A stretch of DNA of 64,000 nt from Minisyncoccia bacterium (GTDB taxonomy: Bacteria > Patescibacteriota > Minisyncoccia > Phycocordibacterales > UBA9973): the NCBI GenBank assembly GCA_049287045.1, contig JBAQFC010000008.1, positions 22,198-86,197 on the forward strand, given 5' to 3'. This document shows positions 384 to 61,720 of the stretch, in pieces. The notes under the pieces were generated by a model that did no database searches, was not told the origin of the DNA, and saw nothing but the letters and a program-made list of their open reading frames with translations. Every line of letters begins with the position of its first letter. The first letter of the stretch is position 1. Position numbers and translations under genes: made by a program.

Positions 384-827
384 TTATTTTCTTTGATATC
401 TCCCCATTAATTCTGATTCAGCTAAAATGTGATTTTGCATAGCCTTGATCAATTCTTTTGAACCGGCAGTTTTTGGTAAATCTAAAACTGTATCTAAAAC
501 ATAAAGCTTGAAAAAATATCGATGAGAATTATTTGGTGGACATGGACCACTGTATTCATTTTTCGGCCAACTATTCTCCCCTTGCACTGCTCCAACTGGT
601 ACACTGTTTTCTTTTATTTCTGTAGTATCGGGTGAAATATTCCACATCACCCAATGGTCCCAAGTCACACCTCTCGAGGCATCTGGATCATCCATTATCA
701 AAGCCAAACTCTTGGCTTCTTTTGGAACATCATTGATAATAAGTGCAGGATTTGTATTCTCGCCATCACAAGTATATTGTGCTGGGATTTCCTTTCCATT
801 TTCAAATGCTAAGCTTTGAATATTCAT
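384..827 (-). CDS. YbhB/YbcL family PEBP (Raf-kinase-inhibitor-like) protein
   Basis: Motifs DDPDA...WDHWV, GxNSW, HRYFFKLYVLD are diagnostic of bacterial PEBP. Confidence 0.8.
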   Translation of the reverse strand: MNIQSLAFENGKEIPAQYTCDGENTNPALIINDVPKEAKSLALIMDDPDASRGVTWDHWVMWNISPDTTEIKENSVPVGAVQGENSWPKNEYSGPCPPNNSHRYFFKLYVLDTVLDLPKTAGSKELIKAMQNHILAESELMGRYQRK

Positions 828-7059: not shown

Positions 7060-7587
7060 TTATTTCTTAGCCAACATTGCATTGATAATTTCATCACCTT
7101 TACCAGCAGCTACGTAGCCTTCAACCATTTTTCGTACACCGACAGAGACGAGCTCTGCAGCTTCTTTTCTGATAGCTTCGTCGCCAGTCTTCTTTTCTTT
7201 TTCTACATCAAGTCGAGCTTGTTTTAATATTTCTTCTTTTTCAAGAGTAGCTTTGTCTTTTGCCTCTTTTACTATGTCTCTACCGTCAGCTTGTGACTGA
7301 GAAATAATATTTTTTGCATTGTCCTTTGCTTCTCTTGTGATTTCTTCCTTTTTTAGACTTGCTCCTGCGAGCTCTGCTTTTGCATTTTCGGCATCAGTCA
7401 ACCCGGTCTTTATCTCATCTTCACGGTCATCCATCATCTTGCGAAGTGGTTTCGCGGCAATAAAATATAAAGCTAGAAAAACCAACGCAAAGTTGAATAG
7501 CTGTGCAAGCATTATCTTCCAATCTATGTGAAATGTTGAAATTAGTTCATTCATGATTTTAATTTTGACAAGGTTGAACCTTGTCAA
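7060..7587 (-). CDS. atpF: F0F1 ATP synthase subunit B
   Basis: N-terminal TM helix followed by a long charged helix rich in E/K/A. Confidence 0.75.
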   Translation of the reverse strand: MTRFNLVKIKIMNELISTFHIDWKIMLAQLFNFALVFLALYFIAAKPLRKMMDDREDEIKTGLTDAENAKAELAGASLKKEEITREAKDNAKNIISQSQADGRDIVKEAKDKATLEKEEILKQARLDVEKEKKTGDEAIRKEAAELVSVGVRKMVEGYVAAGKGDEIINAMLAKK

Positions 7588-7592
7588 AAAAA

Positions 7593-9536: not shown

Positions 9537-9618
9537 TTTTTCAAGGTATTAAGTTAATATTTAAATTACTTTTTCATTTTAGATAGTACAATACTATCTA
9601 AAAAAAATCAATAAAAAA

Positions 9619-9641
9619 TACCCTGACTGAAAGTCAGGGTA
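9619..9641. terminator. Rho-independent terminator downstream of the RRM gene
   Basis: taccctgactgaaagtcagggta perfect hairpin flanked by A/T runs. Confidence 0.55.
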
Positions 9642-9669
9642 TTTTTTATTTTGAGTCTCTAATAAGAGA

Positions 9670-11245: not shown

Positions 11246-11303
11246 AAATTTATTATATCATCAAAAACACCCTCCTTGTGTAAAGGAGGGTGTTTAGAAG
11301 AAG

Positions 11304-19803: not shown

Positions 19804-20343
19804 ATGAATATGTCAACTAAACCCGACTATTCCAAGAAAATACTTAAGATTTTAGGCGAAAAAACAGCTATTTCCCTGCCTGATTTAACTAATCAAGTAA
19901 ATAGTAAAGACTGCTCTCAAAGCTCCGTATACGCCATCACACGCTCATTAAAAGGGCTTCGTGAAGCTGGTCTGATAGAAAATATTTCCTCCGGGCAAAA
20001 TGATTATGCTCGCCTAACAAAAGAGGGCAAAAAGAAAATAAACAGCCTAAAGCTCGACAGTGACACCACCCTCGTTGATACTTCCTGGGACGGGTTTTGG
20101 AGAATTATTTTACTCGACTTACCAGAGACTAGAAAAAGCGAACGTGAATCTCTTCGTTATTTATTAAAAAAGGCTGGGTTCGTGTGTCTCAAAAATTCCG
20201 CATGGATCTCCCCTTACCCTTATGAACATCTTTTTGAAAACATCAAAAAAGATTTAGAGCTCACTACTGAGATGATGATAATAAAAACTCAATTCATCGA
20301 CGAAGAAACTAAAAAGTTTTTATTTGATACTTTCAAGAAATAA
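19804..20343 (+). CDS. PaaX-family transcriptional regulator (wHTH + Cas2-fold C-domain)
   Basis: C-terminal WDGFWRIILLDLPETRKSERESLRYLLKKAGFVCLKNSAWISPYP matches the PaaX_C signature (WDG.W.....IPE..R..R..LR..L...GF..L.NSVWISP). Confidence 0.6.
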   Translation: MNMSTKPDYSKKILKILGEKTAISLPDLTNQVNSKDCSQSSVYAITRSLKGLREAGLIENISSGQNDYARLTKEGKKKINSLKLDSDTTLVDTSWDGFWRIILLDLPETRKSERESLRYLLKKAGFVCLKNSAWISPYPYEHLFENIKKDLELTTEMMIIKTQFIDEETKKFLFDTFKK

Positions 20344-20370
20344 AAAATCTCACAGTGATGTGAGATTTTT
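20343..20370. terminator. bidirectional terminator between paaX-like and grpE
   Basis: aaaaatctcaca-gtga-tgtgagattttt perfect 12-bp stem with flanking A/T runs. Confidence 0.6.
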
Positions 20371-20374
20371 TATT

Positions 20375-20992
20375 TTATTCTTTATGTCCAAAAACTTTTA
20401 CTCGAGCAGCTCTTAGTACTTTGTCTTTTGTTTTGTATCCTTTTTGTAAAACCTGAGCAATAGTGTCATCTTTAGTTTGGTCAACAGTTTCTACAACCTC
20501 CACAGACTGATGAATTTCAGGATTAAATTTATCACCTACTTGCCCAATAGATTTTATACCGTATTCTTCAAAGATATTACTCATCTGAGAATAGATATAT
20601 TCCACACCAGTCCTCCATGTTGCATCTACTTTCTCCCAAGCTTCTTTGTTTGAGAAAGCCATATCGAAACTATCCATTACAGAAAGGAAATTTTCTAAAA
20701 TTCTTTCTTGAATAATATTTCTGAAATTTCTATTTCTTTCTTCTTCTTCCTTACGGTAATTCACAAAGTCCGCTCGCTCTTTCTGCCAGCCGGTTAGGTA
20801 TTCTTCCTTTTGAGCTTTGAGTTCTTTTATATCAGCCCTAAATTTCTTTAAAGTTTTCTTTAAATCTTCCTCACCGTCATCATTGAATTCAAACTCAACA
20901 ACTTCTGATTCTGGTTCTGTTGGTTCTTTAATTATTTCCCCGCCTGCATCGCTTTGCGAAGCATTGCGGGCAGGTTCATTTTCTTCACTCAT
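20375..20992 (-). CDS. grpE: nucleotide exchange factor GrpE
   Basis: Acidic N-terminus, coiled coil, and the C-terminal GrpE beta domain (FNPEIHQSVEVVET...AQVLQKGYK). Confidence 0.8.
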   Translation of the reverse strand: MSEENEPARNASQSDAGGEIIKEPTEPESEVVEFEFNDDGEEDLKKTLKKFRADIKELKAQKEEYLTGWQKERADFVNYRKEEEERNRNFRNIIQERILENFLSVMDSFDMAFSNKEAWEKVDATWRTGVEYIYSQMSNIFEEYGIKSIGQVGDKFNPEIHQSVEVVETVDQTKDDTIAQVLQKGYKTKDKVLRAARVKVFGHKE

Positions 20993-30768: not shown

Positions 30769-31887
30769 TTATATAACGACACCACCACCGAGGCAAACAT
30801 CTTTATCATAGAAAACGATAGATTGTCCTGGAGCAACGAGTACAGGTTTTTCAAAAATCACTTTTGCGGAAGTCGGACTTCCGCAAATTACTTGGCAAGG
30901 TAAAAATTCACCATGATAACGTACTTGAGCTGTATATTCTTTATTTTCATCTGGAGTGCCTGAGATCCAATTAATGTCACTAATTCTAATTTCTTCCCCT
31001 CCTTTTTGAGGAGGGGTGCTCTTTAGAGCGGGGTGGTGATTCTTTGAATTACCACCCCCAACCCCCTCCTTATTAAGGAGGGGGGAAATCTGTGACACAA
31101 TTATGATATTTTTCTTTACATCTTTACTAACAACATAATAAGCCCCATCATTCGGACCTTTTTTGGTAATGGTAAATCCATGTCTTTCACCTAGAGTCAG
31201 AAAAACAGCTCCGTCATGATATCCAATTTCTTCTCCTACCTCATTTAAAACTTTTCCCTTTTTCTCTTTAATATAATGTTTCAAAAAATCTTTCAAATCA
31301 ATATCACCTAGGAAGCAAATTCCCTGACTATCTTTCTTTTCTGCGACAGGTAATTTATATTTCTTTGCCAATTTTCTCACCGCTGTTTTATTCAAATGCC
31401 CTACGGGAAACAAAATATGTTTTAGTTGTTCTTGTTTTAATGTCCACAAGAAATAACATTGGTCTTTGGACGGATCAATGCCTTTAACTAATTTTTTTTC
31501 TAAAACTTGTGCATAATGCCCAGTCGCTACATAATCTGCACCCATTTCTAGAGCCTTTTTCAAGAAAGCACCGAATTTCACTTCTTTGTTGCACATAACA
31601 TCTGGGTTCGGAGTACGTCCCATTTTATACTCAGCAATCATATAGTCTGCGACTTCTTTTTTGTAAACATCTGAAAGGTCAAAAGTTAAAAATGGAATAT
31701 CCAAATGAGCCGCAACGCGCATAGCGTCGCGGCGCTCATCTTCTTCATTACAAACCAAAAAATCAGGGTGCCAGGTACGAATAAAGACCCCGACGACATC
31801 ATGTCCTTGATCTTTTAAAATTGCAGCGGAAACAGAAGAATCCACTCCGCCTGACATTCCTACAAATATTGTCTTTTTCTTCTTCAT
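30769..31887 (-). CDS. mnmA: tRNA 2-thiouridine(34) synthase MnmA (carries in-frame palindromic insertions)
   Basis: PP-loop SGGVDSS, catalytic cysteines, C-terminal beta-barrel. Contains the 90-bp GC-rich element at 30996-31085 and the 25-nt palindrome at 30863-30887, both in frame. Confidence 0.85.
   Translation of the reverse strand: MKKKKTIFVGMSGGVDSSVSAAILKDQGHDVVGVFIRTWHPDFLVCNEEDERRDAMRVAAHLDIPFLTFDLSDVYKKEVADYMIAEYKMGRTPNPDVMCNKEVKFGAFLKKALEMGADYVATGHYAQVLEKKLVKGIDPSKDQCYFLWTLKQEQLKHILFPVGHLNKTAVRKLAKKYKLPVAEKKDSQGICFLGDIDLKDFLKHYIKEKKGKVLNEVGEEIGYHDGAVFLTLGERHGFTITKKGPNDGAYYVVSKDVKKNIIIVSQISPLLNKEGVGGGNSKNHHPALKSTPPQKGGEEIRISDINWISGTPDENKEYTAQVRYHGEFLPCQVICGSPTSAKVIFEKPVLVAPGQSIVFYDKDVCLGGGVVI
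30863..30887. repeat. 25-nt palindrome tttgcggaagtcggacttccgcaaa (copy 1, inside mnmA)
   Basis: Near-identical to the palindrome at 39662-39688; encodes GSPTSAKVIF in frame. Confidence 0.5.
30996..31085. repeat. GC-rich triple stem-loop element inserted in frame in mnmA
   Basis: Three consecutive hairpins: cccctcc/ggagggg (30996-31016), ggggtggt/accacccc (31030-31058), ccccctcc/ggaggggg (31062-31084). The ~65% GC contrasts with the AT-rich surroundings. Encodes ISPLLNKEGVGGGNSKNHHPALKSTPPQKGGEE without stops. Confidence 0.6.
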
Positions 31888-35980: not shown

Positions 35981-37786
35981 TTACTTTCGTAAAGCTTTGA
36001 TACGGTCTTGTTCTGTAAGGTACTTCTTGCGTAGTCTGACTGATTTTGGTGTTATTTCTAAGTACTCATCTGAATTCATAACTTCAAGAGCTCGTTCGAT
36101 GGTCAAAGTATAAACAGGCTTAAGGAATAAGGCTTCATCGGTACCAGAAGCACGCATATTTGTAAGCTGCTTACCTTTTGTAGGATTCACTGCCATATCT
36201 TCCCCTTTTAATACGTTACCAACAACCATTCCTTCGTAAACCTCAGTTCCGTGTTCAATAAAGAGAACTCCACGATCCTGCAAGTTTGCTAGAGAGAAAG
36301 CAACTGCTTTACCAGCAACCATAGAGGTCATAGCACCGTATTCTCGTCTCTTGATTTCTCCTGCATAGTCCTGGAATCCTGTTACTCGTGAGGACATAAT
36401 ACCCTCACCTTTTGTGTCCACAGTAAATTCTCCACGGTAACCCAAAAGTCCACGTGTAGGAATATCGAAAACGATTCTCGCAATACCTTCCTTTTCAGTC
36501 ATATCTTTCATGATACCGCGGCGCTTTCCCATCTTTTCAATAACAACACCGGAAGATTCCATAGGGACATCAACAACCAATTCTTCGTAAGGTTCTGTCT
36601 TTTTACCATTCACTTCTTTGATGATAACCTCGGGCTGAGATACCTGCATTTCGAATCCTTCTCGGCGCATGTATTCCAAAAGAATCGCAACGTGTAACTC
36701 ACCTCTTCCATAAATTTTAAAGAAACTAGGACCTGATTTTATTTCACCTTGATCGGGAGAAAAATCTACTTTAAGACCAACGTTAATTTCAAGTTCTTTT
36801 TCAAGTCTTTCTTTGATCTGTCTTGAAGTAACAAATTTTCCTTCTTTACCTGCGAATGGAGAATCGTTCACTAAAAGGTTCAAGGAAATTGTAGGCTCAT
36901 CAATAGCAATGTGTGGTAAAGGTTCTACACTTTCATCTCCACAAATTGTCTCACCGATATAAATATCAGGAATACCAGCAAGAAGCACGATATCACCTGA
37001 TGTCGCTTCTGTGACATCTTTTCTACTAATACCTTCAAAGGTAAATAATTTTGTAATTCTTGCTGGTCTTGTACCATTTTCTCCTTTAACAAAGAGCTGA
37101 CTATTTGGAGTTATTTTTCCGGAATAAATTCTAGCGACAGCCATTCTACCTAAAAAGTTATCATAACCAAGGTTGAAAACCTGTGCAGACATTTTTGCAT
37201 CTTCATTTACAGATGCTGCTGGAACTTTTTCTAAAATAAGATCTAGAAGTGGAGACAAATCTTTAGATTCATCATTAAGATGTCTCTTTGCTAAACCTTG
37301 ACGGCCGATAGCATAAATAGTTTCAAAGTTTGCTTGTTCATCAGTTGCACCAAGTTCAAAAAACAAACCAAGAACTTCTTCGTGTACACGATTTGGATCT
37401 GCAGCGGGCTTGTCGATCTTATTAATAACGACGATAGGTTTAAGTCCTAACTCTAGAGACTTCTTTAAAACGAATCGAGTCTGAGGCATAGGTCCTTCAA
37501 CAGCATCCACCAAAAGAAGCACGGAATCAATCGCACGCAAAACACGCTCGACTTCAGAACCGAAGTCAGCGTGTCCAGGAGTATCAACAATGTTGATCTT
37601 TGTACCTTTATAATTAATAGAAGTATTTTTAGAATAAATAGTAATACCACGCTCTTTTTCAATAGCGTTTGAGTCCATGGTCAATCCTTCATCTTGAAGG
37701 CCTCCATTTTGTTTCATTAGGGCGTCGGTCAAGGTAGTCTTGCCGTGGTCAACGTGTGCGATAATTGCGATGTTTCTGATTTCCAT
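35981..37786 (-). CDS. typA: translational GTPase TypA/BipA
   Basis: G1-G5 motifs ([18 protein letters not shown]); 601 aa; TypA-specific C-terminus. Confidence 0.9.
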
Positions 37787-37918
37787 TTTGTGTATTTTTT
37801 ATAATAATAATATTGCCTCATCGGCAATCCACCGTAGAGGCGGAATAAAACAAAAAAGCCCGAGGGCTTCATTTGAATAAATCTATAATAGCATAGTTTT
37901 TCTAAAACAGCAAATAAA

Positions 37919-37946
37919 AAACACCACATAATATCGTGGTGTTTTT
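37919..37946. terminator. Rho-independent terminator after the 550-aa secreted protein gene
   Basis: acaccac-ataatatc-gtggtgt followed by a T-run. A second hairpin, aagcccgagggctt, lies at 37852-37868. Confidence 0.5.
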
Positions 37947-37968
37947 TATTTGCTGAAAGCTTTAAAAA

Positions 37969-39621: not shown

Positions 39622-39661
39622 ACTATAAGTATATCACAACACAAAATAAGCTGGTATACTA

Positions 39662-39688
39662 GTTTGCGGAAGTCCGACTTCCGCAAAC
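39662..39688. repeat. 27-nt palindrome gtttgcggaagtccgacttccgcaaac (copy 2; also a likely terminator)
   Basis: 13-bp perfect stem abutting the znuB-like stop; near-identical to the element at 30863-30887. Confidence 0.5.
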
Positions 39689-40491
39689 TATTGACCTCTT
39701 TTAAAGAAGAAAACAATAGCGAAAATAGAAAGCATTAGTAAGACTATTGTCCCACCGGTAGAAAGATTTAAATAAAAAGAAAAAATGATTCCGGAAATTA
39801 CAGAGAAAATAGAGATAATTTCTGCATAGATGATTGTCTGTATAAAACTTTTACGTAGTTGTAATGCTGTGACCACTGGAACAACTATCAAAGCAGCAAT
39901 TAATAAAACACCTACGATTGGCATTGCAAGAGACACTGTTAGGGCTGTAAGAAAAATAAGGGTTGTATTAATAAAACGAACTGGTACACCACTAACCTTC
40001 GCGGCTTCTTCATCGAAGGTCACATATACAAGTTCTTTATAGAAAGTAAATAAAGTAATGACAACTACAATAGCTAAAAGGCTAATCATAAATACATCGT
40101 TTGCTGTAACAGTGACAATACTTCCAAATAAATAATTAAAAAGATTCGCATTCAAACCATTAGAAAGACTGAGTAAAACAATAGCCAACGCCAAACTACC
40201 AGACATAAATAAAGCTAAAGATGATTCACCATAAACTTTTTTAGAAGTACGAAGACGTTCGATTCCAAATGAAGCTAAAACAGTCGAACCCAAAGCAGTT
40301 ACCATCGGATTCAAGCCAAGAAGTAATCCGATTGAGATACCTGCCAGAGACACGTGAGAAAGAGTATCAGCAATAAGAGAGTATCTTCTAAGAACAAGAA
40401 AAATACCTATCAATGGAGCAATAATAGCCACGACTATTCCAGCTTCCAATCCCCTGACCACAAAACCATATTGTAAAATATTTTCTAACAT
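39688..40491 (-). CDS. metal (Zn/Mn) ABC transporter permease
   Basis: ZnuB/TroC-like 8-TM permease. Confidence 0.7.
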   Translation of the reverse strand: MLENILQYGFVVRGLEAGIVVAIIAPLIGIFLVLRRYSLIADTLSHVSLAGISIGLLLGLNPMVTALGSTVLASFGIERLRTSKKVYGESSLALFMSGSLALAIVLLSLSNGLNANLFNYLFGSIVTVTANDVFMISLLAIVVVITLFTFYKELVYVTFDEEAAKVSGVPVRFINTTLIFLTALTVSLAMPIVGVLLIAALIVVPVVTALQLRKSFIQTIIYAEIISIFSVISGIIFSFYLNLSTGGTIVLLMLSIFAIVFFFKRGQ

Positions 40492-49490: not shown

Positions 49491-49558
49491 AGCAAAAGCT
49501 TTTCGAATCCTTCATAAGAGCAAATAAATTTGCTCTTACTCGACGACACATATAAAAA

Positions 49559-49581
49559 AATCCCTTAACAAAGTTAAGGGA
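49559..49581. terminator. terminator hairpin downstream of tRNA-Tyr
   Basis: atcccttaac-aaa-gttaagggat flanked by A/T runs. Confidence 0.55.
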
Positions 49582-49591
49582 TTTTTTATTG

Positions 49592-50058: not shown

Positions 50059-50143
50059 ACTGTCTATTATAACAGACTACTACACTGCTAACAACTTTTT
50101 TAACAAGGTTCAACCTTGTCATTAAAATAGAATCATAGTTTAT

Positions 50144-54555: not shown

Positions 54556-55923
54556 CTAATTATACCACTTTTTTAGTTTGGTCAAAATTTGAGACAAAGC
54601 CTTTAGTGTGTAGTCAATATCTGCTTTAGTTGTCTGTCTGCCAAGAGAAAATCTGATTGATCCATCAATTTCTTTATTAACCAATAACTCCCCTAACTGT
54701 GCTTCACGGATAGCTTGTATTACATGAGAAGCCTTTTCATCACCTGATTTACAAGCACTTTTGACAGAGGCCATAATTCCATGAGCAGAAAGTTCGATTA
54801 CCAAAAGATCACTTGGAATTTTTGGAATCGTGATGTTTATATTGTTAGGTAGTCTGTTTTTTAGGTCACCATTTAAAATTACTTTCCCCGAAACCAGGTT
54901 TAGGGGAAAATCCCCTAAACCTGGTTTCTGGAAATGTGTAGTGTCAAGGCTTAACCTTGACATTTTTTTAATAAAATAATCACGAAGTTTAATTAAACGT
55001 TTTACTTCTTTGTCTTTTATTTGTTCAACAGTTTTTAAAGCTTTTGCTAGTCCGACAATCCCGACAATATTTTCTGTCCCTGGTCTTAATCCAAATTCTT
55101 GGTCACCACCAAATATAATATTAGTGATAGGTGTCATTCTTTTTATATACAAAACCCCAACACCACTAGGCCCATAAATTTTTGATCCATTAAATGAAAA
55201 CAAATCAACACCAAGTTTTTCAACATTGATTGATAAATAGTTTATTGCTTGTGTGGCGTCGGTATGAAAAACTGGAAAAATACCAAGGTCGGACCTTTCT
55301 AAATTCTTAAGGTCCGACCTTTTTGCAACTTTATTTTTTCGATAATGACGAATCTCTTTTGCAATTTCTCTTATTGGTTGAATCGTACCAATCTCATTAT
55401 TTGCGTACATTACAGAAACCAAAATCGTATTTGATTTTAATGCTTTTTTAATTTTCTCGGGATCTACTATTCCATTTTCTTCTACTGGCACATAAGTCAC
55501 TTCTATTTGTTTTGTTTTTTCTAAATGTTTACACACTTCCAGAACGGAAGCATGTTCTATATTCGTGGTGATTATATGAGGAATAATTTTTCGAGTATTT
55601 TTTGAAATGCCTTGCGCAGGCTGACGAGCCGAGCAGAGCAATTTGCCAGCAGGCAAATATGTGTGCATTTGAAAAAATGACTCGTAAAATTTATTAATCA
55701 CACCAAGTAGAGCCAAATTATTACTCTCTGTTGCACCAGAGGTAAAAACCACTTCATTAGAGTGTGCACCTAAAATCTTGGCAATTTCTTCTCTTACTTC
55801 ATTCAGTTGTTTTTTCGCTTTCACACCAAAATCGTGAATTGCTCCAGGATTAGCAGGATTAGCTGAAGCACCACTGGCATAATCCATATATATATTCTTT
55901 GATTTTTTGATTGATTTAACCAT
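54556..55923 (-). CDS. cysteine desulfurase (NifS/IscS family) carrying two in-frame repeat-element insertions
   Basis: PLP-lysine region FNGSKIYGPSGVGVLY and the active-site Cys loop SVKSACKSG. Two extra segments, encoded by the repeats at 55600-55677 and 54889-54929, interrupt otherwise IscS-like sequence. Confidence 0.8.
   Translation of the reverse strand: MVKSIKKSKNIYMDYASGASANPANPGAIHDFGVKAKKQLNEVREEIAKILGAHSNEVVFTSGATESNNLALLGVINKFYESFFQMHTYLPAGKLLCSARQPAQGISKNTRKIIPHIITTNIEHASVLEVCKHLEKTKQIEVTYVPVEENGIVDPEKIKKALKSNTILVSVMYANNEIGTIQPIREIAKEIRHYRKNKVAKRSDLKNLERSDLGIFPVFHTDATQAINYLSINVEKLGVDLFSFNGSKIYGPSGVGVLYIKRMTPITNIIFGGDQEFGLRPGTENIVGIVGLAKALKTVEQIKDKEVKRLIKLRDYFIKKMSRLSLDTTHFQKPGLGDFPLNLVSGKVILNGDLKNRLPNNINITIPKIPSDLLVIELSAHGIMASVKSACKSGDEKASHVIQAIREAQLGELLVNKEIDGSIRFSLGRQTTKADIDYTLKALSQILTKLKKWYN
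54889..54929. repeat. perfect 18-bp-stem hairpin element in frame inside the cysteine desulfurase gene
   Basis: gaaaccaggtttagggg-aaaa-tcccctaaacctggtttc encodes QKPGLGDFPLNLVSG; a second small hairpin, caagg-cttaa-ccttg, follows at 54945-54959. Confidence 0.55.
55600..55677. repeat. 75-nt structured repeat, copy A (in frame within the cysteine desulfurase gene)
   Basis: aaatgccttgcgcaggctgacgagccgagcagagcaa + 18-nt hairpin + atgtgtgcattt, bounded by the inverted ends tttgaaatgc/gcatttgaaa. 49 of ~75 nt are identical to copy B at 58720-58795. Confidence 0.6.
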
Positions 55924-55947
55924 TAAAATAGTATATATTGAAAAGGC

Positions 55948-56409
55948 ATGAATATAAAGCTCGAGATCGCTTTTTTTATTTTAACTGGAATTTCCGTCAT
56001 TGTTGGCGTTATTTGGGTTATAAAAACAGAGAAAAGATTGAAAAGATTTTTTGTTGGTAAAAAAGCAAAAGATTTAGAGGATACTATCATCGCGCTAGAA
56101 AGTGACCTTGCTAACTTAATAAAAATAAAAGAGGAACACGAAAAAGAAATTATTGAGATAAATGCAAAATTAAGAAAAAGTATTCGTGGACTCGAGACTG
56201 TTCGTTTCAATCCTTTTCCAGATCAAGGTAGCAACCAAAGTTTCGCAATAGGATTATTAAATGAAGATGGAGATGGTGTCGTCCTTTCTAGTTTGTATTC
56301 CCGTGAGAGAATGAGTGTTTTTGCTAAGCCTATTAAAAAAGGAAAATCAGAATACGAATTAACAAACGAAGAAAAAGAAATACTAAAAAAAGCTGAAGTA
56401 AAACAATAA
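55948..56409 (+). CDS. hypothetical membrane-anchored coiled-coil protein
   Basis: N-terminal TM, a coiled coil, and a conserved-looking C-terminal domain (RFNPFPDQGSNQSFAIGLL...). Its stop overlaps the infB start. Confidence 0.4.
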   Translation: MNIKLEIAFFILTGISVIVGVIWVIKTEKRLKRFFVGKKAKDLEDTIIALESDLANLIKIKEEHEKEIIEINAKLRKSIRGLETVRFNPFPDQGSNQSFAIGLLNEDGDGVVLSSLYSRERMSVFAKPIKKGKSEYELTNEEKEILKKAEVKQ

Positions 56410-58624: not shown

Positions 58625-58697
58625 GCACCCATAACTCAGCTGGTAGAGTAGCTCCCTCTTAAGGAGAATGTCGGAGGTTCGATCCCTCCTGGGTGCA
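58625..58697 (+). tRNA. tRNA-Lys (anticodon CTT)
   Basis: Acceptor GCACCCA/TGGGTGC, anticodon loop CTCTTAA, T arm GGAGG-TTCGATC-CCTCC. Confidence 0.7.
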
Positions 58698-58719
58698 CAC
58701 ACGAGAGAAAGAAAATGTT

Positions 58720-58795
58720 TTTAAAATGCCTTGCGCAGGCTGACGAGCCGAGCAGAGCAAAAATTCAGCAGAATTTTATGTGTGCATTTTAAAAA
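58720..58795. repeat. 75-nt structured repeat, copy B (intergenic, between tRNA-Lys and tRNA-Leu)
   Basis: Identical 37-nt and 12-nt blocks to copy A. The internal hairpin aaaattc-agca-gaatttt differs from copy A (atttgcc-agca-ggcaaat) by compensatory changes that keep a 7-bp stem and the AGCA loop. Perfect terminal inverted ends ttttaaaatgc/gcattttaaaa. Confidence 0.6.
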
Positions 58796-58862
58796 TTTTT
58801 TCTTACTCTCGTGTTTGATTTATTATCAAAAGAAAGCTATTCTATATAGTAATCGAAAAAAT

Positions 58863-58944
58863 GCCGGGATGGCGGAATTGGTATACGCGCTAGTCTTAGG
58901 AACTAGTGGGGCAACCCTTGGGAGTTCGAGTCTCCCTCCCGGCA
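58863..58944 (+). tRNA. tRNA-Leu (anticodon TAG)
   Basis: Acceptor GCCGGGA/TCCCGGC, anticodon stem CTAGT/ACTAG with loop CTTAGGA (G37), long variable arm, T arm. Confidence 0.75.
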
Positions 58945-58987
58945 CAATGTTTATAAGCTTTAATAGGCTTGACTTTTAAATTTATAT

Positions 58988-59752
58988 ATGGTATACTTTA
59001 TGTATATGAATAAAACAACTAACAACTTAATAATAAAGACTTTAGGAGTATTAGGTATATTTGTTTTCAGTATCCTAGTTTTGCCTGTAAAAGCTAATGC
59101 TTATGGTGGCTTTTCTTATGACGGCGGAGCTGGTAGTTACTACAATGGATATTCTTATGTAGGTGATATTAATACACCCACAACAGCAACACCCACGCCA
59201 ACAGTCAATTTAGTTCCAACCATAAATTCAATTAGTCCTGATTCTGCAGTTTCAAGTAAAGCTGCTACTGTTGTAACAATCATAGGAACCAACTTTTCAT
59301 TTGGATCAGTTGCTAAATGGAACGGTGAAGAAAGAGCAACAACTTTTGTAAACTCAAATAAAATTACAACAACCCTTACCCCATCCGACATGTCTGGATT
59401 AGGTGCTTACACAATAACAGTTTTTAATCCTCTACCAGGAGGTGGAATGTCAAATTCCGCTATATTCCAACTAAACAAAGCTTCTGTCGCAAAAGCGACA
59501 ACTACAACAACCGCAACGACTGTAACAACAGCAAAGGTGGTAAAGAAAACAACTGTTGCTAAAAATACAACTAAAACAACAGATTCTAGTAGTAGTCTTA
59601 TGGCCAACGCACTGTTTGGAACAAATGGTTTAATGCCTTCAAGTTTAATCGGATGGCTTTTGCTTTTAACTCTAGTTCTGCTAATAGTAATATTTGCTAG
59701 AAAAGCCTTTGTTAAAGAAGACAAAAAACATACTCCTTTAAAACACGCTTAA
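58988..59752 (+). CDS. secreted surface protein (IPT/TIG-like beta-sandwich, Thr-rich stalk, C-terminal TM anchor)
   Basis: Signal peptide, the segment PTINSISPDSAVSSKAATVVTIIGTNFSFGSVAKWNGEE (IPT/TIG-like), T-rich linker, C-terminal LIGWLLLLTLVLLIVIFARK. Confidence 0.45.
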   Translation: MVYFMYMNKTTNNLIIKTLGVLGIFVFSILVLPVKANAYGGFSYDGGAGSYYNGYSYVGDINTPTTATPTPTVNLVPTINSISPDSAVSSKAATVVTIIGTNFSFGSVAKWNGEERATTFVNSNKITTTLTPSDMSGLGAYTITVFNPLPGGGMSNSAIFQLNKASVAKATTTTTATTVTTAKVVKKTTVAKNTTKTTDSSSSLMANALFGTNGLMPSSLIGWLLLLTLVLLIVIFARKAFVKEDKKHTPLKHA

Positions 59753-59802: not shown

Positions 59803-59859
59803 GCTTATATATGCTATACTTTATAAATAATAAGTTGTTTGAAAACAGGTTAGAAAAAT

Positions 59860-59921
59860 AGTTATGTTCAGCAAAGATGCTCAGTCCCCTTTTACACTGA
59901 GCCGTTTCGCTGAACATAACT
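59860..59921 (+). promoter_or_regulatory. 62-nt extended imperfect hairpin in the 5' leader of the SPFH operon
   Basis: Outer 13-bp stem agttatgttcagc/gctgaacataact and inner 7-bp stem gctcagt/actgagc, 40 nt upstream of the AGGAG RBS and ATG at 59962. Confidence 0.35.
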
Positions 59922-59961
59922 ATTAATTAAACTAATCTAAAATAAAAAGGAGAAACAAAAA

Positions 59962-61038
59962 ATGACAGCACTAATTACATTTGCCATCTTAGCGATATTA
60001 TCACTAGGTTGGTTAGGCTTTACTTTGCTTTTAAAGCAATTGGGAAAAAATGACACTCACTTTACAGAACTTACAAAAGAAACTGGTAAAGGTGTTGTAA
60101 AGGGAAAGAACGTTGTAAACTTATTATTTAATTCCAAAAATGGTTTCTATGACAAAGAAGGAAACTGGAAGGAATGCAAAGACAACGAAGGAAACTTTAT
60201 ATGCAGACCACAAAATTTAGGTTCTTTGTTTGAAAAACTTGGCATAACCTTCTTTGGGTTAAGTCCAATTAATGAAATCCTTAAATTTAAAGTTTATCAA
60301 AATGATGAACAATTTGAAGAACATACATCTTTCAAGCATCTCTATGACTTTAGAATCATAGTAAAGGAAGTTGAATTATTGGGTGGTGAAATTAAAATAG
60401 ATTTAGATCTAAAGTTTAGGTTTAAGGTAATGAATATTACCAAACTGCTCTTTCTCTCACAACCTGATGGAATCACAATCTACAAAGCTTCAGCTGACAT
60501 AGAAACAGCTGTCAACAATTTTGTGAGAAATAAAGAATGGGATGCGTTTGAAAAAGCAGACAAAACAAGTAAAGATTCTGATTTTATCAGACAAATTACT
60601 GAATCCATTAATGAAACCACATTAAGAACCCTAGGAATAGAGGTTGATAGTATGAAACTTGCAAACTATGGCATAAGCAAAGGTCCATCAAATGAAGAAG
60701 TAGATAAATCGCTTTCTGAAAATTTAATAGCGGAAAACGAAGGAAAAGCTCTGATTACGAGATCAGAGACCGCAGCCAAGGTTTTGGAAATTAAAACCAA
60801 TTCTGAAGGCAAGGCCTTAATCGACAGCGCTAAATTTGCAAAAGATGCACACATACTTACGACAGAAGCTGAAGCACACCGCTTTGGTGAGATGAGTAAA
60901 GTTGCAAAGAAAAATCCTGGGATAATCCCGTTTATGAATTTGGAACAAGTGAAAGAGACACAGATACGTGTCCTTGGAGCTAATGTAATATCCACCATTA
61001 ATGTTGATGGTGATGAAACTAAAAAGGAGGGAAAATAA
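59962..61038 (+). CDS. SPFH/Band-7 (flotillin/HflK-like) domain membrane protein
   Basis: N-terminal TM, a central SPFH-like region, and C-terminal Ala/Glu/Lys-rich helical repeats (AENEGKALITRSETAAKVLEI...). Confidence 0.5.
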   Translation: MTALITFAILAILSLGWLGFTLLLKQLGKNDTHFTELTKETGKGVVKGKNVVNLLFNSKNGFYDKEGNWKECKDNEGNFICRPQNLGSLFEKLGITFFGLSPINEILKFKVYQNDEQFEEHTSFKHLYDFRIIVKEVELLGGEIKIDLDLKFRFKVMNITKLLFLSQPDGITIYKASADIETAVNNFVRNKEWDAFEKADKTSKDSDFIRQITESINETTLRTLGIEVDSMKLANYGISKGPSNEEVDKSLSENLIAENEGKALITRSETAAKVLEIKTNSEGKALIDSAKFAKDAHILTTEAEAHRFGEMSKVAKKNPGIIPFMNLEQVKETQIRVLGANVISTINVDGDETKKEGK

Positions 61039-61655: not shown

Positions 61656-61685
61656 GGGCATAATATCGCATTGCCCAATGCAAAC

Positions 61686-61720
61686 AAAAAGCCGTTCACA
61701 AATTGTGAACGGCTTTTTTT
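61686..61720. terminator. bidirectional Rho-independent terminator
   Basis: aaaaagccgttcaca-aatt-tgtgaacggcttttt perfect 15-bp stem. Confidence 0.6.

Follow-up and report, generated by a model that had tools for sequence, protein, structure and literature searches.

A palindromic in-frame insertion in a cysteine desulfurase gene of a Minisyncoccia bacterium and comparable repeat elements in related Paceibacteria

The desulfurase gene and the palindrome at site C

We analysed a stretch of 64,000 nucleotides (hereafter the window) from contig JBAQFC010000008.1 of a Minisyncoccia bacterium (assembly GCA_049287045.1, positions 22,198 to 86,197 of the forward strand). On the minus strand of this window, the gene at 54556..55923 encodes a cysteine desulfurase of 455 amino acids (aa) (NifS/IscS-like, class-V aminotransferase), as indicated by its open reading frame (ORF) and by its Pfam and PDB matches. 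This gene contains three palindromic insertions, located at positions that we call sites A, B and C, and the element at site C is the subject of this study. An initial annotation of the region had correctly noticed that several in-frame palindromic insertions share this one gene, and had counted two of them.

The 455-aa protein matches PF00266 (E 4e-53, 181 bits) and its best relatives in the PDB are NifS/IscS structures. These were also the top Foldseek matches of its predicted model (TM-scores, target-normalised, of 0.80-0.87). The pyridoxal phosphate (PLP) lysine K248 and the cysteine C391 are unvarying in the alignment of 120 desulfurase orthologs; the host protein combines the PF00266 fold, the PLP lysine and the catalytic cysteine that characterize class-V aminotransferases/cysteine desulfurases. 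It is 100% identical to P0001, a protein from a metagenome-assembled genome (MAG) of a Minisyncoccia (Patescibacteria) bacterium at NCBI. Desulfurase orthologs range from 370 to 484 aa in length, and those among the matches listed by two pattern scans (600 each) are mostly distant; related DNA was available as 169 fetched loci (P and L numbers below designate proteins and DNA loci, respectively).

The palindrome at site C has two 27-nt arms (54881-54907 and 54911-54937, plus-strand coordinates) that are 89% complementary according to the inverted-repeat search. On the plus strand, its core is a perfect 18-bp stem, gaaaccaggtttagggga (54890-54907) and tcccctaaacctggtttc (54911-54928), closed by the loop AAA (54908-54910). 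The perfect 18-bp stem had been described in the initial annotation with a loop of four adenines, which is in fact one nucleotide shorter, and the peptide proposed there agrees with the ORF 54556-55923, whose translation around site C reads ...MSRLSLDTTHFQKPGLGDFPLNLVSGKVILNGDL.... The minus-strand DNA of the segment 54870-54965 folds at -31.9 kcal/mol, compared with -9.3 +/- 2.4 kcal/mol for shuffled sequences (z = -9.5; 0/200 shuffles fold as well), and the site-C segment folded as RNA reaches -50.6 kcal/mol (z = -10.4 versus shuffles).

The element has a nested architecture. Each arm is itself a quasi-palindrome, CCCC-G-AAACC-A-GGTTT-A-GGGG, and the whole corresponds to an inverted dimer of this 21-nt unit, the second arm being the reverse complement of the first and not a direct repeat of it. 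The 21-nt arm is therefore a short imperfect palindrome in the size range (about 20-40 nt) of the repetitive extragenic palindromic (REP) units, and the two arms form, as in REP dimers, inverted units with a short spacer that fold into one large stem-loop, here exact over 18 nt and with a 3-nt spacer. The whole element is an inverted repeat; in miniature inverted-repeat transposable elements, terminal inverted repeats come together with a target-site duplication. The element is 57-59 bp in size, its length is a multiple of three, the host frame runs through it without a stop codon, and four of the six reading frames are open. Two other identities were tried and rejected for this segment: an intein or intron, as the segment is far too short, always in frame and stop-free, and a mimic of a tRNA anticodon loop, as the loops are AT-rich palindrome centres that differ between orthologs.

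Judging from the ortholog alignments, the site-C palindrome is an insertion that is polymorphic among orthologs. The codons added correspond to about T329-G346, THFQKPGLGDFPLNLVSG, i.e., 18 aa encoded at 54886..54939 on the minus strand (boundaries +/- 1-2 codons), and this added part of 54-57 nt is in essence the palindrome itself. The linker from LRDYF to NGD comprises 10-21 aa in 86 of the 120 orthologs versus 33 aa in the window protein, in agreement with the earlier statement that the IscS family normally lacks an extra segment before the NGD block. The closest full-length ortholog (P0005, locus L003; 79% identical) has an empty site, with KKLLKFNFVVNG at this position and no hairpin. A related site-C peptide is present in two other orthologs only, P0002 (DNA L001, 90% identical) and P0011 (DNA L002), both of them encoded by palindromic DNA. 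The L001 copy is a better palindrome than the one in the window (57 nt, 27 of 28 positions paired), and the L002 copy is a perfect 23+23 palindrome, in which the inner part CCCCTGGGG replaces the AAACCAGGTTT of the window.

A second, smaller hairpin adjoins the palindrome (tgtcaagg-cttaa-ccttgaca, 54942-54949 / 54955-54962; 8 bp, 5-nt loop), visible in the sequence and in the DNA fold and encoding MSRLSLD. It had been noticed initially as part of the same insertion, in an interval that includes the 18-bp stem and whose end, at 54959, clips this hairpin by 3 nt. The hairpin is indeed adjacent to the large stem, but it falls outside the inserted part, in the portion of the linker that has native length: orthologs without the big insert read ...SR(V/L)xLD... 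at this position, and MSRLSLD is native linker because orthologs such as P0105 (MSRLNLDSKLVI) have an equivalent. At the same place, L085 carries a 13-bp form of this hairpin, TGTCAAGGTTCAACCTTGACA, and the hairpin at 54942-54962 is probably an older, decayed small palindrome. Programmed -1 frameshifting was rejected here: only about 2 nt separate an A-run from the small hairpin downstream of it, an unsuitable spacing, and no alternative ORF supports the idea. Two near-identical intergenic palindromes of the window, at 7563-7589 and 50100-50123, resemble the small hairpin and its 13-bp form in L085; they read (T)TGACAAGGTT(G/C)AACCTTGTCA(A), with TTGACA / TGTCAA, and could correspond to an operator or to a bidirectional -35 motif.

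At the protein level, an AlphaFold2 model built on the 120-sequence alignment (mean pLDDT, the predicted local distance difference test, of 82.7) shows residues 327-343 as a coil of low confidence (pLDDT < 50) that follows the helix 286-325 and precedes the strand 349-350, which is the first of the C-terminal domain. Elsewhere the model can be superposed on NifS/IscS structures, and the insert residues are left unaligned in the comparison with IscS2 of A. fulgidus. The insert is thus predicted to form a disordered, solvent-exposed surface loop. The initial annotation had proposed a comparison with exposed loops of IscS structures, and the low-confidence coil is consistent with such a location.

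Related insertions in the desulfurase and mnmA genes

The other two insertions of the desulfurase gene are likewise palindromic. The insertion at site A (55597..55678) is 82 nt long and encodes FFQMHTYLPAGKLLCSARQPAQGISKN; terminal inverted repeats of 14 nt enclose two inner hairpins (z -4.6). A copy of this element is located in an intergenic region, at 58699..58815, between the genes for tRNA-Lys (58625-58698) and tRNA-Leu (58863-58945). Detected by blastn (97.7% over 43 nt, with a common core of about 70 nt) and by folding, its DNA reaches -34.4 kcal/mol (z -8.4), and one inner hairpin differs from that of the in-gene element by compensatory changes. The site-A elements of the window and of L166 are about 95% identical in host proteins that are about 57-63% identical, and L171 carries the element of the window reverse-complemented at the same site. 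The intergenic copy lies within a cluster of tRNA genes (Cys 58259, Leu 58478, Lys 58625, Leu 58863), and an ORF listed at 58731-58979 that overlaps it is probably spurious.

At site B (55285..55321), the repeat search and the fold identify an inverted dimer, AAGGTCGGACCTT-N11-AAGGTCCGACCTT, which encodes RSDLKNLERSDL. The IF-2 gene of L086 contains this dimer as well, again in frame (SRSDLGDSKRSDL), and the dimer is read in three different frames: as RSDL..RSDL, as GRxLRIQKGPT in MnmA P0124 and as KVGPFDKVRP in P0010. In L165, site B is occupied by GCGGAAGGACAGTCCTTCCGC-GTCT-reverse complement, again with the inverted-dimer design. The site-B element of L164 gives in its +1 frame FSRVLGLEPDQLEN, which recurs in many orthologs (sites B and C), and in its -1 frame TKHLENFRAGLAPNRGPEKILL, which matches P0009 (84% over 25 aa, E 7e-17); that of L170 is the reverse complement of the L164 element (67/76). 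In the L170 gene itself, one element occupies both site B (1040-1114) and site C (1460-1519), in opposite orientations and with an identical core of 47 nt, which implies that the element was recently duplicated or transposed inside this gene. More generally, when the DNA elements are translated in six frames, the products match peptides inserted in other orthologs that are read in different frames and orientations.

Inserts at sites A, B and C were compared in seven orthologous genes; all of them form strong hairpins (z -3 to -12.7), and the empty sites do not. Inverted dimers of quasi-palindromes are present in at least 10 other desulfurase genes (L009, L086, L091, L098, L101, L120, L124, L160 and others), and elements at two related loci start with a tag, GTAG in L098 (TGTAGGAG...) and CGTC in L091 (CGTCGGG...). 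As far as sequence comparison can tell, the sister elements at sites A and B are shown to be dispersed DNA repeats that are independent of frame and orientation, the conserved entity being the DNA. A fourth loop of the desulfurase, site D (residues 404-421; 55923 - 3 × (404..421)), is variable in length, with IREAQLGELLVNKEID in the window protein (16 aa versus 9 in most orthologs). Its DNA presents no symmetry in the window (z -0.3), and other orthologs carry recurrent inserts there, such as KPARNAFSIADAG.

Insertions of the same kind are present in mnmA (30769-31887, minus strand). An in-frame composite of three hairpins, SPLLNKEGVGGGNSKNHHPALKSTPPQKGGEE, lies at 30994..31089 between the PRC-barrel and the C-terminal barrel, and recurs in orthologs at the same or at another site of mnmA. 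The repeat search also identified, at 30863..30887, a 25-nt palindrome (TTTGCGGAAGTCSGACTTCCGCAAA) that encodes CGSPTSAK in a loop of normal length. Its intergenic copy, TTTGCGGAAGTCGGACTTCCGCAAA (39660..39690), is located directly after the stop codon of the ABC-3 permease gene (39688-40491, minus strand) and corresponds to the mnmA palindrome except for the central base (blastn 100% over 25 nt). Hence both the site-A element and this palindrome have a second copy detectable by blastn within the window. A hairpin stem at 11265-11295 (CACCCTCCTT...AAGGAGGGTG) resembles the hairpins inserted in mnmA. The lengths of MnmA orthologs range from 343 to 459 aa, with two hotspots that contain the same families of inserts as the desulfurase, including GLAGVGDPENRGPEK, ALPASGLRHG, RGRAQG and RSDL.

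In a sliding-window fold of the 64 kb, the two lowest energies within ORFs correspond to mnmA (30961-31120, -41.8 kcal/mol) and to site C (-36.9 kcal/mol). Another stable structure, in BipA (37516-37605), was tried as an insertion and rejected, as it corresponds to a conserved 15-residue GTPase motif. The longest inverted repeat of the window is intergenic (59857-59924, between an ORF that ends at 59752 and one that starts at 59962; 29-nt arms, 86% complementary, 10-nt spacer). Many perfect intergenic hairpins flanked by an A-run and a T-run (9610-9650, 20338-20375, 37908-37955, 49555-49587, 61684-61720 and others, among them the one at 11265-11295 with its mnmA-like stem) look like bidirectional intrinsic terminators.

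Across related Paceibacteria, many families of elements occupy four loops of the desulfurase and two loops of MnmA, and the inserts at sites A to C and at the mnmA hotspots are palindromic wherever their DNA was looked at. A six-frame motif scan of the fetched loci (about 2.4 Mb; the RSDL pattern was mis-specified) retrieved only desulfurase and mnmA genes as hosts. Among 146 low-GC loci, strong GC-rich hairpins number 21 in 190 kb of desulfurase genes versus 8 in 1065 kb of other ORFs of at least 250 aa, a density about 15-fold higher in desulfurase genes than in other long ORFs (Poisson P about 1e-17). On syntenic contigs, the desulfurase varies from 427 to 484 aa while its neighbours are near-constant in length (IF-2, 498-510 aa; ClpB, 891-898 aa; DUF4446, 152-153 aa; RbfA, 106-108 aa). 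The two insert hosts, desulfurase and MnmA, are successive enzymes of tRNA 2-thiolation. This hotspot may reflect an unusual tolerance, a targeting or a use of the elements. One could tentatively propose that a large and diverse population of elements resembling REPINs (REP doublets forming hairpins) enters, in any frame and orientation, a few fixed loops of both 2-thiouridine enzymes in Paceibacteria / Patescibacteria by targeted insertion or for a cellular use, e.g., co-regulation of the messages or hairpin-templated loop turnover, a proposal that we consider doubtful.

The desulfurase gene is adjacent to a strand switch. Gene orientation and GC skew both flip at about 55923-55948, and the cumulative GC skew has its minimum at about 56 kb: to the left, the skew is negative nearly throughout (with one positive 2-kb bin, 38-40 kb), and to the right it is mostly positive. 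A gap of 24 bp separates the desulfurase gene from the divergent DUF4446-IF2-RbfA operon, and this divergent arrangement is kept in related contigs. The strand switch near 55.9 kb, a candidate replication origin, was considered as a cause of the insertion hotspot, an idea that was not retained given the intergenic gap of only 24 bp.

Origin of the site-C element

We propose, with a probability of about two in three, that the site-C feature is a short non-autonomous palindromic repeat element, comparable to intragenic REP dimers or to the Rickettsia palindromic elements (RPEs), that is translated and tolerated by its host. In this scenario, two inverted 21-nt quasi-palindromic units would form one hairpin of 57-59 nt, located where the last helix of the PLP domain gives way to the C-terminal domain. 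The gene would remain intact because the length of the element is a multiple of three and its frame is without stop, and the element, translated into about 18 extra residues, would persist through doing little harm. The same process would have repeatedly filled four desulfurase loops and two MnmA loops with many families of elements. Insertion would most likely follow a single-stranded hairpin route, either with a Y1/HUH transposase similar to the REP-associated tyrosine transposases (RAYTs) acting in trans, or by template switching during replication. That the site-C element arrived by the same route as the sister elements, that it is translated and near-neutral, and that it inserted by such a mechanism is what we infer from these comparisons.

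A RAYT-like mobilisation is at this stage a lead. Genes encoding Y1_Tnp proteins distantly related to RAYTs are present in the related loci L168, L086, L160 and L071, and the NCBIfam family that they match best is REP-associated tyrosine transposase (REP_Tyr_transpos), with 39 bits for a cut-off of 80. The gene of L168 (11601-12245, minus strand) encodes a 214-aa Y1_Tnp (HUH) protein; AATACAYAGGANNTTCCTATGTATT palindromes lie on either side of this gene, which is inserted where the syntenic locus L169 has nothing.

Several observations weigh against this proposal. Searches with the 18-mer, blastn and the dimer architecture detected no second copy of the site-C element in the 64-kb window, and when the 30-aa insert region was compared exhaustively by HMMER with 1.84 billion representative proteins, only the 90% identical ortholog P0002 was retrieved. 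The copy number per genome is apparently low, unlike that of classical REPs and RPEs. At their ends, the copies of the window, L001 and L002 lack both the GTAG and the CGTC tag. No target-site duplication is recognisable at the site-C borders, where the orthologs with an empty site are too divergent. By tblastn, the 64-kb window contains no Y1 transposase, and the palindromes beside the Y1 genes of L160, L086 and L071 are unlike the in-gene elements. The translation of the insert is itself deduced from the reading frame. The behaviour of the stem is also a point to consider. The genes of the window and of L001 differ at 9.1% of sites, and the 36 paired core bases are unchanged (P about 0.03), the changes in the element being two in the loop and two in the outer stem; the changes of L002 keep the pairing on both arms. 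Such an unchanged stem and such pairing-preserving changes could reflect selection on the structure instead of neutrality.

The main rival for this single-copy element is template switching, i.e., a palindrome that was made in place through fold-back copying of an earlier quasi-palindrome during replication or repair, kept perfect by correction within the element and never moved. The correction of quasi-palindromes by template switching is an established source of mutations; quasi-palindrome mutagenesis of this type has reportedly been described by Ripley, and later work is said to have found that template switching can create RNA hairpins. Such mutations produce perfect inverted repeats and coordinated changes of both arms without selection, which matches the comparison of the window with L002, where each arm has 5 differences and every one of them is mirrored on the other arm. 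The nested hairpin-of-hairpins design is also expected from iterated inverted duplication, and even the short "baseline" linkers at site C are small palindromes. The results on copies go in the same direction: an 18-mer search with up to 3 mismatches, for which 0.04 chance occurrences are expected in the window, returned self-matches alone, and the site-C peptide was found nowhere else beyond the close ortholog. When the DNA of the window and of the 169 fetched loci was searched with the 18-mer, with the inner palindrome of 11 nt and for the dimer architecture, only L001 and L002 were retrieved in addition. The two open-frame peptides of the element gave no candidates in a word-index protein search, which was uninformative. 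The initial annotation had called for a search for further copies of the stem, and these are its results. However, a palindrome that is about 74% identical is present in a different gene of another genome, at the M2 hotspot of mnmA in L167. This only relative found at another locus has an alignment score of 19, versus -11 +/- 5 for symmetry-preserving shuffles, and it differs by a change that is compensated on both arms (GAAACC...GGTTTC versus GAAGCC...GGCTTC). Moreover, template switching copies neighbouring sequence only and leaves unexplained why the sister insertions are dispersed over other genes, genomes, frames and orientations. We therefore regard a purely local origin as unlikely.

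One could also imagine that the hairpin is maintained as a nucleic-acid structure, either in the mRNA (e.g., an RNase III site, a ribosome pause at a domain boundary or a control shared by the desulfurase and mnmA) or in the DNA. The stem conserved between the window and L001 despite the divergence of the genes, the pairing maintained in L002, the high hairpin density in desulfurase genes and the occurrence of the two lowest within-ORF energies in two tRNA 2-thiolation enzymes all agree with this idea. On the other hand, the closest ortholog and most of the others lack the insert, and the P value for stem conservation is marginal. Sequences that occupy the same site show an extreme diversity, and imperfect elements are found in either orientation, which would not preserve an RNA structure with G-U pairs. 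No Rfam family reaches its threshold either: only sub-threshold matches to generic miRNA precursors were obtained (e.g., mir-551, 30.8 bits versus 51), and the whole window yielded six tRNAs and no other family at gathering score. A role as selected structure thus seems improbable.

The extra loop could instead be a functional insertion, e.g., a partner-binding surface, with the DNA symmetry being incidental. The insert is in frame and three orthologs retain it with a similar PG(L/V)G(D/E)(F/L)PL motif. The predicted disorder (pLDDT < 50) and the absence of the segment in the closest ortholog argue against this, as does a palindrome far beyond chance, and the sister elements are read in three frames into unrelated peptides, indicating that the DNA is what is conserved. 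The initial annotation had stated that an equivalent peptide in orthologs without the DNA symmetry would contradict a palindromic insertion; no ortholog was found with the peptide on non-symmetric codons. A selected peptide is therefore very unlikely. Finally, amplification or mis-assembly of metagenomic data may create chimeric palindromes, but an artefact giving a spurious inverted duplication is effectively refuted because independent assemblies carry the same element (the NCBI MAG and a Logan contig from 4 samples), with analogous elements in JGI, ENA and NCBI assemblies and with a mid-contig position, always in frame in an intact ORF.

The suggestion that this genome tolerates in-frame palindromes, made initially from the desulfurase gene, agrees with the three inserts of this gene, the additional ones in mnmA and the families present across the clade. 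Taken together, these results are better explained by selfish or structural DNA that the cell tolerates than by a function, i.e., by the exploitation that had been suggested as the alternative.

Comparison with known palindromic elements

Protein-coding palindromes were first presented as peculiar to Rickettsia, intragenic REP dimers have since been reported from a few other bacteria, and the clade-wide pattern in Patescibacteria is apparently undescribed: a full-text literature search for Patescibacteria, Candidate Phyla Radiation (CPR) and Parcubacteria retrieved no report of in-frame palindromic elements there. The present case would extend the phenomenon to the CPR, at a striking density, and would account for some of the numerous odd "insertions" seen in proteins of the CPR. 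It is also a warning for annotators and structure predictors, since such segments would be selfish DNA and no functional motifs. These elements could serve as natural, dated experiments on the uptake of random peptide loops by proteins, and they raise the question of why two functionally linked sulfur-transfer enzymes are the preferred hosts.

The design of the site-C element is that of the REPINs, in which two inverted REP units with a short spacer form a hairpin and are presumably mobilised in trans by a Y1/HUH transposase whose gene is single-copy (Bertels and Rainey, 2011; PMC3116915; PMC3337134). REPINs are extragenic and abundant, whereas the site-C element is intragenic and no RAYT is encoded in the window.

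The intragenic REP dimers are closer in location. The GTAG- and CGTC-tagged REP units are palindromes of 20-40 bp that occur as inverted pairs and fold singly or as one stem-loop (PMC3733652). Their intragenic dimers are in frame, and some genes contain two or more of them (Di Nocera et al., 2013; PMC3733652); they encode 20-30 aa in Opitutus terrae, Thauera and Rickettsia conorii, where they correspond to RPE-4 and RPE-6 (PMC3733652). The site-C element has the same architecture and belongs to the same size class, but it lacks the GTAG/CGTC tag and is present in one copy in 64 kb instead of forming a high-copy family. Furthermore, the REP dimers are mostly extragenic, whereas many unrelated low-copy families are found here at a few fixed loops of two genes.

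The RPEs, finally, are palindromic selfish DNA of about 150 bp inserted in frame in unrelated housekeeping genes of Rickettsia (Ogata et al., 2000, 2002; summarised in PMC10969869). They are translated as extra peptide segments that were judged compatible with the protein fold (PMC10969869). RPEs are reported as restricted to Rickettsia, whose genomes contain dozens of copies. The site-C element is likewise in frame, leaves its ORF undisrupted, lies in a predicted surface loop and resides in a host with a small genome (Patescibacteria). It differs from RPEs by its length (57-59 bp versus about 150 bp), its phylum, its low copy number and its structure as a dimer of nested palindromes. The missing length of about 150 bp lowers the case for the site-C element being an RPE and leaves intact the case that it works like one.

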